NCBI GenBank assembly: GCA_951406725.2
Contig: OX597833.1
Coordinates: forward strand, 72,664,001 to 72,728,000
Length of the DNA: 64,000 nucleotides
Reading direction: 5' to 3'
Source of the DNA: Octopus vulgaris
Lineage: Eukaryota
Position 1 is the stretch's first letter. Each line of letters starts with the position of its first letter. Positions 338-60,320 of this stretch are shown piece by piece. The position numbers were made by a program, and so were the translations under genes. Under the pieces are notes generated by a model. It was not told where the DNA came from and searched no databases. It saw only the letters and a program-made list of their open reading frames with translations.

Positions 338-694
338 CATCTGTTACAAGAACCAAAACCCTGGGGGCATCCTTCTTGGGTTTGGCACCATTACTCGGGT
401 TGAAAACATTGTTGACGACAGTGTTGATTCCAGCGGCCGTTTCTGTGCCTCCGCTATCGTAGCCCATGGTCCGGATCTTCTGAATCATTTGACTTTTGCT
501 GGTGAAAGCATTCAAGTAAAAGAGCACTTTGGCTGTGCTACTAAAAGTGGTAACAGACACCCGGAACTGGCCGGGAGATATTGGCAGCCGGTTGATGGAC
601 TTCTCCAGAAACTGCTTCACTTTGTTGTAGTTGGCTTGTCCAACACTTCCCGATTCATCCAGAAGAAATACAAGATCCGTCGGCTTCTCACAGC
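338..694 (-). CDS. Exon 3: von Willebrand factor A domain (gene continues left of window)
   Basis: TTTCAG acceptor, phase 1, matching exon 2. Reads CEKPTDLVFLLDESGSVG (DxSxS MIDAS)...GGTET...VLVLVTDG, then a GTAAGT donor at 337. Confidence 0.9.
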
Positions 695-795
695 CTGAAA
701 TAAGACGATTCCTATGTCAGACAATGAGAAAAAAGGGTGTGGCGGAGGGTGGGGTGGGGGATACGACACTGCGTTGGGATTCCATTCCATAATAA

Positions 796-835
<40 letters not shown>

Positions 836-1340
836 CTCCTCACTCAAAATTTCTCAATGCATCCCCTATTTCTCTTTCTAACCCATATACACACACACAT
901 ACATACATTCACACATACACACATGCATACACACATACATACATACATACATACACACATACACACACACACATACATACACACATACATACATACATAC
1001 AAAAATACCCTGATGATGTTGCTGAAATTGTAATGAAGGAGCCTTGGATCAAGGTTAGAAACCAGCTCTTTCTCTATCGGCAAGAAATCTTGAAATAAAA
1101 CTGAATAATGACATACATACAGAAATACACACATACAGACACACACACATAGATACATACATACATACATACAAGCAGATATACATACGTACATACACAC
1201 ATTCATGTATACATATATACATACATACACACACACATCCATTCATGCACATACACATACATACACACATGTACACACGCATACACACAGATACATACAC
1301 ACATACACACGTATACAGATAGATATACAAACAAACTTAC

Positions 1341-1626
1341 TGACTGACACTCGATTCGCTGCTTCTTTGAACTTGTTGTTGTTATTGGTGACCCCTGGAT
1401 GGAAGTAATGTTGCCAGATGCTTTCTTGGCTGGCCGCATCCCCGGCAATGGGTTTGCCGCGCAGTTGCAGGTACAGGTAAGTCGCTAAGCCGGAATACAA
1501 AGGTTTCATCAGATCCGACCATTTGGTCTGTGACCAGTTGATGTTGAATGTTTGCCGAATCTTTTGGCAAGGTGCAGCCAACACGCCGCTGCAAGGTCTT
1601 ACGGCATTGTACTGCTTTTCGGTGAT
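1341..1626 (-). CDS. Exon 2 of lysozyme-like + VWA protein
   Basis: TAG acceptor after a (TTC)n pyrimidine tract. Reads ITEKQYNAVRPCSGVLAAPCQKIRQTFNINWSQTKWSDLMKPLYSGLATYLYLQ...RVSV. GTAAGT donor at 1340, phase 1. Confidence 0.8.
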
Positions 1627-1630
1627 CTAG

Positions 1631-1680
1631 AGAAGAAGAAGAAGAAGAAGAAGAAGAAGAAGAATATGATGATAATTATG

Positions 1681-1748
<68 letters not shown>

Positions 1749-1910
1749 AAGAAGAAGAAGAAGAAGAAGAAGAAGAAGAGAAGAGAAGAAGAAGAAGGAA
1801 AAGAAGAAAAAGAAGAAGAAGAAGAAGAAGAAGAAAAGAAGAAGAAGGAAAAGAAGAAGAAGAAGAAGAAGAAGAAGAAGAAGAAGAAGAATAATATGAT
1901 GATAATTATG

Positions 1911-1941
<31 letters not shown>

Positions 1942-2080
1942 GAAGAAGAAGAAGAAGAAGAAGGAGAAGAAGAAGAAGAAGAAGAAGAAGAAGAAGAAGA
2001 AGAAGAAGAAGAAGAAGAAGAAGAAGAAGAAGAAGAAGAAGAAGAAGAAGAAGAAGAAGAAGAAGAAGAAGAAGAAGAAG

Positions 2081-2112
<32 letters not shown>

Positions 2113-2222
2113 GGAGGTGGAGGAGGAAGAAAGGAAGAGAAAGAAGAGAAAGGAGGAAAAGAAGAGAAAGAAAATAAAGAAGATAAAGAAGATAAAGAAG
2201 ATAAAGAAGAAGCTGAAGAAGA
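1631..2222. repeat. Compound (GAA)n/(TAA)n microsatellite in intron 1 of the VWA gene
   Basis: Directly visible trinucleotide arrays, with an internally duplicated gaatatgatgataattatgataat block. Confidence 0.95.
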
Positions 2223-2565
2223 AACACGTGAAATGCAAACTAAAACTAGAACATCAACGTAAGGTGAGAGAGCGATGGCAAGAAAAGCCCCGAAACCGGG
2301 CAAATATTGGGTTCAGGGAAATAAAAAAGAAAAAGGGAAAGCAAAATGGCAGAGAGAGAAGCGTGTGTTTGTGTGTGTATGTGTGTGTGTGTGTGTGGTG
2401 AGGTAAGGGAGAAATTGTCTGAGTGGACAATCTAAGCGCCATCTTGTCTTCCGTTGGTCATTTGCGATTTGGACAAAGCACGGCTGTTGGTCTTGCCACC
2501 TTCTCAGCGTCTATAAAAGGGCCACGTCTTTTCTTATAGATGATAATAGTGATAGTGGAAAGTGT

Positions 2566-2600
<35 letters not shown>

Positions 2601-2714
2601 GGACAGACAGACAGAGAGAGGAGGGAGTGAGAGAGAAAGGGAGAAATGAGGGAAAGAGGATGAGGTTCGGCAATTAAACTACCAACAAACAAACTAACAA
2701 ACAAACCAACCAAC

Positions 2715-2960
2715 CTGCCATATTCCTCCGAAGAAATTCGGTCGGAAAGTGCTGTGGTCGAAACCATCTTTCGATTCGACGTAGGCCATTCTTCTGACGA
2801 AAAGTCTGTCATTATCAAATATACAGGAACCTCGAATTTTATCGACGACAGCTTCAACCACGCTGGGACCGTTCGCTTTTGGCACCAAAGTCCTGTCCAC
2901 ACTGTTCGCCTTCACAACATTCAACAATAAAGCACTGGCAATCCACCATATTGCTTGCAT
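2715..2960 (-). CDS. Exon 1 of secreted lysozyme-like + VWA domain protein (signal peptide and start of lysozyme/SLT-like domain)
   Basis: ATG at 2960 gives MQAIWWIASALLLNVVKA (signal peptide-like) followed by ...RRMAYVESKDG...GGIWQ. GT donor at 2714, phase 0. TATA and CCAAT boxes lie upstream. Confidence 0.8.
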
Positions 2961-3032: not shown

Positions 3033-3066
3033 TTTTATAGTGATCACCGACCAATCACCGACCAAT
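3033..3066 (-). promoter_or_regulatory. Candidate core promoter of the VWA gene: TATAAAA plus two CCAAT boxes
   Basis: ttttata at 3033-3039 is TATAAAA on the minus strand, ~75 bp upstream of the ATG. Tandem accgaccaatc repeats give CCAAT at 3051 and 3062. Confidence 0.55.
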
Positions 3067-15290: not shown

Positions 15291-16359
15291 TTTTTTTACC
15301 TTTGAATACATTTCCCTTCCTTTTCATTGAATACTGCATTTCGCCCGTCTTTACGTCCTGAGTTCAAATTCCACCGAGGTAGATTTTGTCTTTCGTCCTT
15401 TCGGGGGTCGATGAAATAAGTACCAACTGAACATTTGGAGTTGATGTAATCGACTAAACCCCCCCCCCCATCCCGTGTCCCCTAAATTGCTGGCTTTGTG
15501 CCTAAAGCAGAAAGGATTTATTACTGTTGTTGTTTAATCCCAGCTCAGCCCTGGTCCAGCAGATCGATGATCAAGGACCCTCTAGCAGTGAATATTTCGC
15601 CTACATCATCTGACGTGTCCTTCCTTTGTAACACGGTATGATGTGATTGAAAGGAGGTTTGGCTGCTACTCCTAGCAACACGAATCGATCGAGGAAGCAC
15701 TATCTATAAATTCTTTGAGGAATTCCACTCCAAAGTAGTCTTGTCTTCGATTAAAATCCTATTACGACACCACATTTACATCTCGTCTGCTTTATGGAAA
15801 TATTTTAGGAATCTTTGGCATTTCACTGCTGCATTATTTCAATGATGTTTTTCACTGAAAACATGAGAGACGAAGTCGATCCGAGCAAGGTTTGAACACA
15901 GGACGTGGAGAACCGCAACTAGATGCCGCAGCTACTTTGTCGATAATTCTGCCAAATCGACGAGAGAGCCACTACGTGGTCACTCCACCGGCTAGAAACA
16001 GCGACTAAACCTCTTTCCAATTGCACCAAAGGAATGGCACATTGGATAAGGAGATTCAGGATGCACTGTGTCTAGAGAAAGGGCCGAGATAGTCATGGGT
16101 GGAATGCCTTTGATCAATAGGTGTACCCAATCAGGGGGTGGGCAATCTAGGATTAAATAATGTCAGGTGGGAATAATATTTGTAAATTCTGTATTTTCTT
16201 CTTTTTCTCTAGAAAAGACGCTGCGCGGCTGAAAAGACTTTGAGAACAACTTGATTCAAATGAAACTGCAGAGAGCAGCAGACCCTTATAACTGCATGGA
16301 AGAGTAACCAAGAAATAAGAAATTCCGGTCAAAACACGAGTTCTCCCTGCAATGAAGCA

Positions 16360-18732
16360 ATGTTGCCATCTTATATGCCAGATTTCGATTCACAAGAATC
16401 CCAACACCTGCCTCCATATTTGAACAGATGCAACATGTTAAATGGCCGTAAATTGTCTTTTCCAGAATCAATGGAACAGCATGATGTTTCCAAACGATTC
16501 GCTCCACAGCAATTTGAAATGAAACGTGAAAACGTTAACAGACGGACAAGAAATATGCCATATTTCCACGACGACGATGACGTCGATCGAACTCTCCTTC
16601 TGACTTATGATGGCGGCAGGCTTATGCGGCCGCAGTCATTTCATGAAATACCGGGCAGTTGCACGGAGAATAAAATGAACAATCAGATAAATTTCTGCAG
16701 TAAAAGAAGAAGCCATGCGGAACCTTTAGAAAGCTCTCTAATGACAGAAGACAACAAGGATCTCGCAGACAATTCTCTTGCGTTAATCCGAGTCCCGAGA
16801 CATGATGGAGAAATTTCTTTACGACAACAGACGCCATTGCACTCGGACATACTTCACTCTCAAAAAAATTATCCACAACAGTCGAACTTTCCGTATGTTC
16901 CTCGCAAACCGTTTTTAAACCCATATTTAAACCCTCATTTACAAAGATATAACAATTTTCATAAATATACACCAAATCGACCTCCTTTTTCAACTGGGTT
17001 CCCGAATTTTATTAATAACCCTTTCAGACAAAATTGCCCACCTTTTCGAATGAACCCGTCTGGTTGTAACTGTTATGCGCAGCCGACACGATTCCCAACG
17101 CAAGAATATTGTCGATTCCCTGGACATCGAATGAAATTATCGAATCCGACACGAGATTATGAGTGGGATTTCATTAATGATGCTGACGATGACCATTACC
17201 AATGGAACCAGAATGACATGGACCCGCGGACACATTTTGAATTCTCCAACTATCAAAGGAGGAAGCATCAGAATAATTTTGGTTTAGGTCAGCCCATTTA
17301 TTGCCACGACGCAATCAGCCTCCAAGAGATCTCGGCGGATCCTTATAGATCTCACTTTAATAACGAAACAGATATCGATGAAATTGAAGAAGAATATTTT
17401 ACTTACTTGCAGAAAACAATTCCCAATTTCAACGTTCTGCCCAAAAAATCCAATCTTAAAATAACATCCTTGATACCGGAGAAGGAAGAGAAGTCTTTGA
17501 CGAATTCCACTTTTGCGTCATCGAACCGAACAAGAAATAACTTTGGCGACCCCCAACAGACTGCTCGGTCTTTGATGCTCATGCGTCTTCTCAAGGTTCT
17601 TGAAGAAAATATAGACATGTCGAATTACTCAATGGACTTCCAAGAAAATTACGTTGACAGCCATGGCAGGCTAGTCGATCCGTTTCAGACGTATATAACG
17701 GATTTAGAACAGAATAAACTAAAATCTCAAAGAGACGAAGCATTTGTTCAAGAAACATTTTCGTCTCGCCCACCTGTCGTGGTTTTACGCAATCGCCGGA
17801 GTGACGTCATAACCCTTGATGAAGGTGTCACTCTTAAGAGTTCAGCCAAGTATATGGAGAAACCGGAAAACGATTACGGAAAGAGCATCAAGCTAAATAA
17901 CGCATCTCTGCATGATTATCTCAACAGGTCTTTGGACGTTCCTGTCAGGCATCAACAGGCACACCAGACACAACAACAACAACGAGAAGAACAAGAAAAA
18001 CATCCTATTCTTCAATCACACCCCGAAGTAATAGTTGAGACAATAAGAAGGGAAAGGAGTGTTCGAGAAGATTTTAGTCAGCCGCCATCTTTCCCTGTCC
18101 CAGGAGTACACGAGAGATTATTTAAAACATCGGTTGAACAACCAATTGATATGGGAACTCCATGGGAAAAAGAAAGAGAATTTCAAAGATATAACATGTT
18201 TAAACCCCAATTTGTTCCTGAAACTAGAATTTACTCTAATGCCGCTCAAATTCCGCTTAGTCACGACATCTTTGATGGCGAAACTGGCAAAAGAGATGTG
18301 ATAAATATATCACAACAACGTTTGATCAGAAAGAATGGCGATCCAAATGAAATTCCATACGAAACTATGGCGGAGTATTTCCAATCGTCTGCCGCTGATA
18401 TTAACCCACGTGTAAGTACGAAATACGTCTTTTTGAAAGACCCAAATTCAGAAGGAATCCAAGAAGATATTTTAAACAAACTGAAATGTCAGAGCAAATT
18501 GCGATCATTCGATGAGAAACCTTTTGTAACAGAAGCCCCGGATGAAAGCGATCCAGAGAATGAAGTTCCAGATCGTGAAAGCGAGTTTCTTGGTCGCCAG
18601 TCGTTCATGGCACTGAAACAACGTTTCGAAACAGAAAAACATGTCCAGTTCGTTGATGAAGATAACAATGGTTCTTTTAAGAATTACCCTTATTTCAAGA
18701 GCCGCGTCGATAGCAGTGACTATTCCTACTAG
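16360..18732 (+). CDS. Uncharacterised 790 aa protein, single coding exon, likely largely disordered
   Basis: Uninterrupted, repeat-free 2373 bp ORF with ATG and TAG. In-frame stop at 16261; splice acceptor ttttctctAG at 16212 (5' UTR intron); AATAAA at ~18935 and ~19018. No recognisable domain or TE motif. Confidence 0.8.
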   Translation: MLPSYMPDFDSQESQHLPPYLNRCNMLNGRKLSFPESMEQHDVSKRFAPQQFEMKRENVNRRTRNMPYFHDDDDVDRTLLLTYDGGRLMRPQSFHEIPGSCTENKMNNQINFCSKRRSHAEPLESSLMTEDNKDLADNSLALIRVPRHDGEISLRQQTPLHSDILHSQKNYPQQSNFPYVPRKPFLNPYLNPHLQRYNNFHKYTPNRPPFSTGFPNFINNPFRQNCPPFRMNPSGCNCYAQPTRFPTQEYCRFPGHRMKLSNPTRDYEWDFINDADDDHYQWNQNDMDPRTHFEFSNYQRRKHQNNFGLGQPIYCHDAISLQEISADPYRSHFNNETDIDEIEEEYFTYLQKTIPNFNVLPKKSNLKITSLIPEKEEKSLTNSTFASSNRTRNNFGDPQQTARSLMLMRLLKVLEENIDMSNYSMDFQENYVDSHGRLVDPFQTYITDLEQNKLKSQRDEAFVQETFSSRPPVVVLRNRRSDVITLDEGVTLKSSAKYMEKPENDYGKSIKLNNASLHDYLNRSLDVPVRHQQAHQTQQQQREEQEKHPILQSHPEVIVETIRRERSVREDFSQPPSFPVPGVHERLFKTSVEQPIDMGTPWEKEREFQRYNMFKPQFVPETRIYSNAAQIPLSHDIFDGETGKRDVINISQQRLIRKNGDPNEIPYETMAEYFQSSAADINPRVSTKYVFLKDPNSEGIQEDILNKLKCQSKLRSFDEKPFVTEAPDESDPENEVPDRESEFLGRQSFMALKQRFETEKHVQFVDEDNNGSFKNYPYFKSRVDSSDYSY

Positions 18733-50757: not shown

Positions 50758-50821
50758 TGGCTGAGTGTCCATATAAAAGAAATCGGAAGAGAGAATAGGT
50801 TCCGTGGAGGTGACTTCTTAC

Positions 50822-50902
50822 CGCCGTGTGTCTGTCCAGTAACCAGTTGATGTCGTAGTCATCGTCGTCTTCTCCAAACGGATTGATCAGTTGCTCGGCC
50901 AC
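50822..50902 (-). CDS. BEST: Bestrophin exon (Ca2+ clasp)
   Basis: [27 protein letters not shown]; 81 nt, phase 0-0. Confidence 0.97.
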
Positions 50903-52188
50903 CTTCAACAGAAAAGCGAAAGGTGAAGCCAATCCGACAATGAGAGCAGATTTCTTATTCCAATGCACACACGCACACACACACACACACAAACATAAAA
51001 ACATACATATATATGTATGTGTGTGTGTGTGTGTGTGTGCGTGTTCATGTATAATTAGAGAACAGCTTTTCTTTCAAATGTGTGATATTTAAAATTACAA
51101 ATAGTTTTGAGTTGTTGAATGGATTTTCCATATTGCCTTCTTTATCCTTTTTATGTTTAGTTCAGGATAACACCCTTCCTAAATCCATTAATCCTTTAAT
51201 ATTCCAATCCTGTCCCGGCCTCATCATCACAATGAAATCAAGAGAATAACGACTTATTGTTCACTCGCGTCGCAGTCGATCGAAAAGGAACAAAGCAATT
51301 CCACGAAAACCGATGGAAATCGTTTTTAAAATCACGCAACATTTAAAATCTTGGCAAATTTCATTCTTTATTTCAAATGCGAACCATTTTTGTATTGAGT
51401 TTTGTTGGTATTTTGCTTTAGTGAATCTTCCATAATTATTCTTTCTATTTTTGTGGAATTCTACATAAAACTGCCATACTGTCAACAAATAGCTTTTCTA
51501 ATTTCCAGCCGAAGACTGTCTTAACCGTTTTGTTCCATATTTCTGTTGAAAGATACTGGCTTTGTGCCAATACATTTTAAAACAAGAAATTGTCATTGTT
51601 CAGTTAGTATTTCGAACATAGATGTCGATGAAATTTTGATGAGATCAATTTAAAACGGGAAGTTTATATCACAAAACTAGGATCGGTCAAAGGCAAGCTG
51701 GAATGAAAAGAATGAAAATGAGTTGCGATGAGTTCTTGTTTTACTTCGAGGTTTATTTCTTTCTGTCGTTGATTCTGACCGCAACAGAAAACACGCCTCA
51801 TTTTACTCAACCGTTGGCATGGCGCTAATGAAGGTAAACGGATTACAATACCTCAGAGATGCAGCCATTCAGGGGCCATTGAAAGGTGGGTAATTAGCGA
51901 ATTTAGTCAGAATGGACTCCTTCAAAGCAGTTTATAGCCAGCAAATAACATCAATATAGAGGATAAAACTAAAATGGACAACTACGTGAGATGGTGGATC
52001 GAACCCACACACAAACGATTGCAAAAGAAAGAAAAATAATAATAATAAAAAGACACACACACAAGATAAGCTCCTTAGCCACTCGGCTACGTCTGCAGCG
52101 AATTGGATGAAATTAAGGCCACAATTCTACTGACTCGGTCAAGGTTCGAACCTAACGCCACTGCATCGTGAAAGAAGAAAAGACCTAC

Positions 52189-54994: not shown

Positions 54995-55149
54995 CTGTAT
55001 AATCATCCGAAGTCCCCAATCGGATTCGATTCGTTCTTCTCGCCGAGCAGTGACCAATACGTTGTTAGCCCAGGTGAGCGGGACCCAGAATTTGTGGTAC
55101 TTGCATTGAACACTTTCCCATATTTCGACCTCTTCTTTGGTCATGAAAC
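54995..55149 (-). CDS. BEST: Bestrophin exon (cytosolic helices, aperture region)
   Basis: GFMTKEEVEIWESVQCKYHKFWVPLTWANNVLVTARREERIESDWGLRMIIQ; 155 nt, phase 1-0. Confidence 0.96.
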
Positions 55150-55310
55150 CTGTTCATATCGAGATTAAATATGGAGGGAACACGGAGCACTTTTTTTTAC
55201 TTTCGAATATTCAAGTCTATCAACAATGGCCGAACTCTAGCGATGCGCTGATTGTCGATACAATGCAGCCATTTTATGATACCCATATATATAATACACA
55301 CATACACACA

Positions 55311-59549: not shown

Positions 59550-60320
59550 GTGAACGGAACAAGATCGAAGCTCTCAACACCTGGGCGATTTCACTCCTTA
59601 GATATGAGCAGGGGTAATCACATGGACAGTAGACGAACTAAACAGCTTAGACAGAAAGACAAGGAAGTTGCTAACTAGATACGAGTCACTCCACCCAAAA
59701 TGTCACACAGATAGACTGTATGTACCAAGAAAAAGAGGGGGAAGAGGACTTATTGGATGCGAACACAGCATTAGAGCAGAAGAAAACAATATAGCATGGT
59801 ATGTAAAAAACATTCCACAGAACCGCTATTATTAGAAGTAGGAAGGTCGGGCTTGTGTAGGATGAAAGATTGCAAAGATAAAGCATGATACAAGGAATTG
59901 AAAACGAATGAAACTGAAAATAGGTGGGTAAAGAAAAGAATGCATGGACAATTTCATAGGGGGGTTGAAAACAGACAGAGAAAAAAGATGGCTGTGGATG
60001 ACTAAAAGTGATTTAAAGCCAGAAACGGATGCTCTAATCTGTGCTGCCCAAGAGCAAGCACTAAGAACAAACTACATAAAATACAGAATAGACAACACAT
60101 CAGAAAGTGATAAGTGCAGAATCTGTGGACAAAACGGTGAAACAGTATGGCATATTACAAGCCAATGTACGCTACTAACCCAGAAGGAATATAAGAGACG
60201 CCACGACAATATAGCCAGACTTGGCCATTGGACGCTTTGCAATAAGTATGGACTTGACAGAGCAAAAAATTGGTACGACTACAAACCTGAAAGCATCGTC
60301 GAAAATAGAAATGCAATTTA
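59550..60320 (+). mobile_element. R4/Dong-like LINE fragment following (AAT)n
   Basis: NKIEALNTWAISLLRY...LHPKCHTDRLYVPRKRGGRGL...AAQEQALRTNY...CRICGQNGETVWHITSQC...YKRRHDNIAR. Confidence 0.85.

Follow-up and report, generated by a model that had tools for sequence, protein, structure and literature searches.

A predicted secreted octopus protein joins a putative lysozyme-like domain with phage relatives to VWA and chitin-binding domains

Surveys of animal lysozymes describe the c-, g- and i-types together with a few transferred types, patchily distributed among invertebrates (PMC11576321, PMC12855814). As far as the accessible portions of these and the following sources go, an origin by transfer from bacteria has been argued for the g-type lysozymes (PMC12855814), octopuses are reported to have no g-type lysozyme gene (PMC11576321), and the bivalve phage-type lysozymes are described as the product of phage lysin uptake accompanied by intron gain, fusion and duplication (PMC5303276). 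The lysozyme superfamily, whose enzymes cleave beta-1,4 glycans, is defined there by a two-lobed alpha/beta fold and a common core with a Glu at the end of a central helix, a Gly-x-x-Gln and a beta-hairpin (PMC2976769); in goose lysozyme these residues are E73, G92 and Q95, a Glu-to-Gln spacing of 22 (PMC2976769). We describe here an octopus gene whose first domain is an unnamed animal branch of this superfamily with close phage relatives. Our search for a published description of the animal family or of the phage family phrog_3108, which excluded subscription papers and newer domain databases, found none.

The gene lies on the minus strand of a 64,000-nucleotide stretch of Octopus vulgaris DNA (the window). 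Three exons of 246, 286 and 357 nt, bounded by AG acceptors and GT donors, give 296 stop-free codons when joined by script (Table 1). The O. sinensis RefSeq protein P0004 (723 aa) is spliced identically, and the splice put forward in the original prediction is borne out. The exon joins also appear in transcript-like contigs from 4 runs (4 studies, 2 organisms; their RNA nature was guessed by the tool), which cover exon 2 only: their loose ends, matched to the genomic exons by eye, read into exon 3 at its start in all 4 runs and into the last part of exon 1 in 3 of the 4. The O. vulgaris models P0002 and P0003 skip exon 2, a form without support in the contigs examined, from which rare forms may drop out. 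The whole gene has 8 coding exons and encodes about 723 aa; exons 4 to 8 lie before the window start, from G000:C20:72661092 down to about 72655876 and thus within 8.2 kb of that start, and they leave the reading frame open. A join of the full gene by GT-AG boundaries only gives 722 aa, one codon short of P0004. Three motifs had been predicted to assemble only across the exon 1/2 junction; this is true of the third, and the ES and GGIWQ motifs lie wholly inside exon 1.

Table 1. Positions of features in the window (position 1 is its first letter).
Feature	Position	Strand	Basis or remark
Putative promoter-like stretch with TATAAAA and two ATTGG boxes (CCAAT reversed), some 70 nt upstream of the ATG	3033..3066	-	sequence only
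Coding exon 1, codons 1-82: encodes the likely signal peptide and the lysozyme-like domain's first half; GT donor in phase 0	2715..2960	-	splice, P0004, contigs
Likely signal peptide, about 19 aa	2904..2960	-	hydrophobic stretch by eye; homologues have similar leaders
Glu62, putative catalytic acid, C-terminal end of central helix	2775..2777	-	model and conservation
G78-G-I-W-Q82 motif, likely counterpart of the superfamily Gly-x-x-Gln	2715..2729	-	conservation; definition in accessible part of PMC2976769
Intron 1, simple-repeat-rich	1627..2714	-	splice, contigs
Coding exon 2, codons 83-178: second half of lysozyme-like domain	1341..1626	-	splice, contigs
DLxKPLYSGLA helix, in exon 2	1515-1468	-	
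W153-x3-F157-H158, in exon 2; phage relatives have W-x3-Y-N there	1416-1393	-	
Intron 2, phase 1	695..1340	-	splice, contigs
Coding exon 3: first two thirds of VWA domain	338..694	-	Pfam VWA E 1e-32
MIDAS in exon 3: D190-x-S-x-S; T261; D296	659-645; 446-444; 341-339	-	
Bestrophin gene, two exons	50800-51073 and 54995-55153	-	Pfam E 3e-13 and 4e-11
Open frame of 822 codons, composition unremarkable; probably belongs to another gene as a large exon	16264-18729	+	no Pfam match at E 0.01
Retroelement-like fragments	59608-60318	+	zf-RVT match under curated cut-off, E 1e-4

The encoded protein consists, in order, of a likely signal peptide, a 160-aa domain, a VWA domain whose MIDAS is complete, a beta-sandwich (about 170 aa) and CBM14 repeats; the five exons outside the window complete the VWA domain and add the last two parts. 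The first three elements had been predicted from the window sequence, and that domain order holds. In P0004 the VWA domain (PF00092) matches Pfam at E 5e-44 with the full DxSxS...T...D, and the MIDAS residues D190, S192, S194, T261 and D296 are invariant in 22 of 22 aligned proteins. CBM14 (PF01607) scores 56.9 bits against a cut-off of 22.1, with two stretches passing and a third CBM14-like repeat visible by eye. The middle domain (P0004 residues 364-536, exons 5-7) is predicted to be a jelly-roll beta-sandwich, and its PDB matches are weak (best E 0.001). Among them are collagen-binding domains and the g-type lysozyme inhibitor PliG (E 0.007-0.02), and one paralogue on C27 repeats the middle domain several times; that it might regulate the lysozyme-like domain is speculation. 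Existing names follow the forecast that automatic annotation would see only a collagen- or matrilin-like protein: P0002 is called "collagen alpha-1(XII) chain-like" and P0014 "matrilin-3-like".

The 160-aa domain belongs to no family in a Pfam search; PDB sequence searches with the single domain and with a profile gave nothing relevant, and a word-index search with exon 1 alone gave no match. An AlphaFold2 model built from 17 sequences (pLDDT 89, pTM 0.87) was compared with 48,161 chains (VIA), and the best 50 rows were all lysozyme-superfamily proteins by title. Among them were phiKZ gp144 (Z 9.2, rmsd 3.4, 131 residues aligned), a glucosaminidase (Z 9.2), MltE (9.0), and MltC and the GH23 chitinase ChiC (both 8.8); a second structural comparison gave Z 9.3 for MltE and 9.1 for ChiC. 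Foldseek's first PDB match was ChiC, with a best PDB E-value of 0.37, and the ESM Atlas put exon 1 alone in a lysozyme-like cluster at 0.93. Since these Z-scores are middling for a helical domain and tied among families, the structural support rests on the uniformity of the match list. The model's central helix spans domain residues 33-44, and the candidate catalytic Glu (Glu62, domain residue 43) stands at its C-terminal end, followed 20 residues later by Gln82 in G79-I-W-Q82, compared with 22 residues in goose lysozyme. The motif order and spacing are those claimed for this protein from its sequence. DSSP assigned a beta-hairpin or strand nowhere in the model; in the superfamily core, as defined in the accessible part of PMC2976769, the Gly-x-x-Gln is carried on a hairpin. 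Could such a resemblance be the chance likeness of a small helical domain? The middling Z-scores, the lack of a PDB sequence match and the lack of a Pfam lysozyme match for the animal domain would fit that explanation, but the best 50 structural rows are drawn from many families of one superfamily, the motifs stand in the right order at the right spacing, and the phage homologues described below are located in lysis cassettes. We therefore regard chance likeness as very improbable, and the predicted structures support a lysozyme-like fold for the first domain.

The phage relatives came to light through profile and pattern searches. With the profile of phrog_3108, a phage family of unknown function, three of five animal-type proteins match (E 4e-12, 3e-14 and 1e-11) and one matches weakly (E 0.034); the fifth, P0004 itself, gives no match at E 1, and the connection between the octopus protein and phrog_3108 runs via its homologues. 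The octopus domain is 23-27% identical to the phage rows. A tblastn search found 24 GenBank phage records, phiKO2 Gp54 included, and in four phage records the annotation of a member reads endolysin. A motif scan of IMG/VR recovered 409 relatives among 485 matched stretches, the best of which is 44% identical to the domain of the brachiopod Lingula (E 2e-39) and aligns to the animal profile with an hhalign probability of 99.7%; scans of viral contigs with patterns from the animal alignment or from P0011 found no relative, and it was a pattern from the mixed alignment that succeeded. Predicted phage structures superimpose on the model with TM 0.77-0.82 and 0.84. Among 65 distinct phage domains, the Glu is invariant (62 of 62 that cover its site), as is the Gln (63 of 63), neither residue being part of the search pattern. 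The pattern does select for Tyr-Asn, so conservation of that pair among phages is circular and was not used as evidence. These comparisons establish, at the level of sequence, that the octopus domain family is homologous to the unannotated family phrog_3108.

Where phage genes of this family stand alone, their neighbourhoods suggest a lytic role. Peptidoglycan hydrolases typically occur either beside lysis-cassette genes or within large virion proteins. At 28 non-redundant standalone loci, a holin or spanin lies within two genes in 8 and a late regulator (Q-like or late activator) just upstream in 6; 20 of the 28 have no recognised lysis neighbour, and none of the 89 neighbour genes of these loci encodes another endolysin. 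Three more loci carry the domain within proteins of 794-1126 aa, one of them with a second endolysin-like match, which are probably parts of the virion. Given the holin or spanin neighbours and these large, probable virion proteins, members of the phage family likely cut peptidoglycan, and phrog_3108 is indicated as an unrecognised endolysin family. One phage member of 15 proteins scanned shows a weak SLT match (E 0.006; 16.6 bits against a cut-off of 21.3). phiKO2 is listed among phages with two-component spanins in the accessible part of PMC6139136. A 636-kb phage record (LR756504) has three matching places, and the one examined lies between ribonucleotide-reductase-like and topoisomerase-like frames, outside a lysis cassette.

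A profile search of 1.84 billion representatives returned 1,591 proteins at E up to 0.001, of which the best 150 were inspected. Members with names come from cephalopods, gastropods, bivalves, the brachiopod Lingula, two tardigrades, two mites and the brittle star Amphiura; this range covers named groups only, since 14 of 20 family proteins looked up were unnamed and one more had no organism. Among 71 selected longer matches scanned with Pfam, 63 have VWA and 26 CBM14, while 45 have no CBM14 match; other partners are EGF, TSP1, MAM and ZP. Single-domain forms of about 200 aa and tandem-repeat forms also occur. P0027, P0029, P0030, P0032 and P0036 have three tandem copies each, and P0011, P0021, P0026 and P0084 have, in place of CBM14, a hydrophobic C-terminal tail that looks like a membrane or GPI anchor. 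Conservation was scored in 163 proteins (the best 150 and earlier homologues) with 189 domains, 185 of which cover both sites. The position of Glu62 is Glu in 151 of these 185, which makes it one of the family's best-kept polar residues and upholds the expectation that invertebrate homologues would conserve it; Gln82 is kept in 123 of 185, and G79 and W81 each in 99%.

The putative active site is kept unevenly across the family. Tyr-Asn, which the octopus copy has replaced by Phe-His (F157-H158), is present in 46 of 175 animal-type domains; all 45 Tyr-Asn domains scored for Glu keep it, and 28 of 127 domains without Tyr-Asn have lost it. Among CBM14-bearing members Tyr-Asn is found in 1 of 36 and Glu in 23 of 38; for the remaining members the figures are 45 of 139 and 129 of 148, respectively. 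This remainder contains proteins not scanned for CBM14, and related sequences do not count as independent. The branch with chitin-binding repeats is thus drifting from the phage-like site, with the octopus protein intermediate.

Octopus also carries many relatives of the window gene (all counts here are lower bounds). Exon 2 has 18 further genomic matches, of which 16 fall at 8.1-12.2 Mb of C27 and the other 2 on C1, and there are 19 paralogous first exons, all 19 with the donor GT at the same position. At the Glu62 position these have Gln in 18 and Lys in one, and at the Gln82 position Arg in all 19, leaving the window gene as the sole copy found with both residues. Of five paralogue loci examined, with domains labelled by our own profile of alignment A1, two lead on to VWA; in the other three, CBM14-like repeats follow directly and 40 kb contain no VWA match. 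In 11 of 17 first exons on C27 (8.1-10.7 Mb) a Glu stands two residues before the lost catalytic position.

What might the octopus protein do? We tentatively propose, with confidence slightly short of even, that it is a secreted glycosidase that cuts bacterial walls with Glu62 as its acid, kept at chitinous or mucous linings through its CBM14 and VWA domains. As the corresponding Glu does in GH23 enzymes, Glu62 would protonate a beta-1,4 glycosidic bond. The CBM14 repeats would fix the protein to linings that contain chitin, and the VWA domain, which binds metal, would link it to matrix or mucus proteins, so that bacteria at such surfaces would be thinned out or digested. Both the enzyme activity and the substrate of the octopus domain are proposed by analogy. 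Against an active peptidoglycan enzyme are the loss of Tyr-Asn in the octopus copy and the loss of Glu under way in the CBM14 branch. An active enzyme could have been redirected to chitin or chito-oligosaccharides, like Ralstonia ChiC, and remodel the animal's own chitinous matrix: CBM14 repeats lie on the same chain, ChiC is the first Foldseek PDB match and ties for first by Z, 35 of 36 CBM14-bearing members have lost Tyr-Asn, and three octopus paralogues pair the domain with CBM14-like repeats without a VWA match. However, the lead of ChiC is not significant (E 0.37, and Z ties with lytic transglycosylases and a glucosaminidase), 45 of 71 scanned long homologues show no CBM14 match, many homologues consist of the single domain, and CBM14-bearing members are enriched for loss of Glu rather than its retention; we consider a redirected chitin enzyme unlikely. 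The domain could instead be non-catalytic here, its Glu a relic, and bind GlcNAc glycans of chitin or the bacterial wall as a matrix cross-linker or pattern receptor. All 19 paralogous octopus exons lack both Glu and Gln82, as 34 of 185 animal-type domains lack the Glu, Tyr-Asn is lost in the window copy, and the tandem repeats would suit binding; but both Glu and Gln are retained in the window copy and likewise in its nearest relatives, which come from Argonauta, gastropods, bivalves and Lingula, and few polar residues of the family are kept as well as the Glu. A purely binding role for this copy seems to us rather improbable. The 19 Glu-less octopus copies, for their part, would only bind glycans.

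A tree built from 97 animal-type and 33 phage domains (130 in all, reduced by identity from 176 and 61, both sets being the best-scoring parts of larger ones) places all 97 animal-type rows on one side of a branch (SH-aLRT 61) and groups them with three phage rows at SH-aLRT 94. The midpoint root, in a tree without a true outgroup, falls among phage rows and sets 30 of them against the animal-type-plus-three group. P0125 and P0143, near the base of the animal-type group, have unusual Cys-rich partners and might be non-animal eukaryotes. In bacterial genomes, a weak search that used one protein as query yielded one match of 24 residues. With the animal rows on one side and the root among phage rows, the topology fits a single transfer: an early animal ancestor probably acquired the domain once, from a phage or from the bacterium that hosted it, and the signal peptide, intron and animal matrix domains would have been added after capture. 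A bolder reading, possible but on balance somewhat doubtful, is that this is an overlooked animal lysozyme type, a phage hydrolase captured once before the protostome-deuterostome split, present in over a thousand clusters, tethered to matrix as an antibacterial, and expanded in octopus to about 19 dead, glycan-binding copies. If true, it would also give phrog_3108 a function. An enzyme family so far overlooked, probably derived from phages and coupled to adhesion and chitin-binding parts, may be present in many invertebrates, and a widespread further family hidden under "collagen-like" labels would change the count of animal lysozymes and add an old phage-to-animal transfer. The family is tractable: the domain is 160 aa long and has a single predicted catalytic Glu, and paralogues that naturally carry Gln in its place offer in-genome controls.

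The closest counterparts are the phrog_3108 proteins themselves (phiKO2 Gp54, and a protein of Salmonella phage PMBT28 that adjoins a holin), which share full-length homology, the Glu and Gly-x-x-Gln, and predicted structures at TM 0.77-0.84; unlike the octopus protein they lack a signal peptide and matrix domains, and their C-terminus reads YWKKYYNT, whereas the octopus copy has lost the Tyr-Asn. The model also resembles the GH23 lytic transglycosylases MltE, Slt70 and phiKZ gp144 and the chitinase ChiC (Z 8-9.3, rmsd 3.2-3.5 over 120-131 residues), with the Glu at a helix end and Gly-x-x-Gln 20 residues later, but identity is 8-17%, the model has no assigned hairpin, and SLT (PF01464) finds no match at E 1 in 8 animal-type proteins. 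Motif III of SLT is A-Y-N-x-G and includes the Tyr-Asn, where the octopus protein has F157-H158. Animal g-type lysozymes, also GH23, share the superfamily (Z 6.3-6.8) and differ in being 8-12% identical in structural alignments, with no PDB sequence match. Sequence similarity speaks against an identity as a g-type lysozyme, and the profile search against one as a Pfam SLT protein. The accessible part of PMC11576321 does not mention VWA and reports no fusion of g-type lysozymes to it.

Pif/BMSP and other molluscan proteins with VWA and chitin-binding domains share the secreted VWA and CBM14 architecture but have a partial LamG domain (PMC11291548), which Pfam does not find in P0004; the octopus protein has instead an N-terminal lysozyme-like domain and a middle beta-sandwich. 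In its accessible part that study mentions neither lysozyme nor transglycosylase, and the accessible text and supplements of an arthropod survey of transfer chimeras (PMC13389597) do not mention VWA or include the two mite proteins. The bivalve phage-type lysozymes offer the nearest evolutionary parallel, a phage lysin captured by animals, and are described in the accessible part of the source as limited to two bivalve subclasses (PMC5303276); the octopus domain, in contrast, has its match in another phage family, one without annotation, and its relatives occur in protostomes as well as in a deuterostome.
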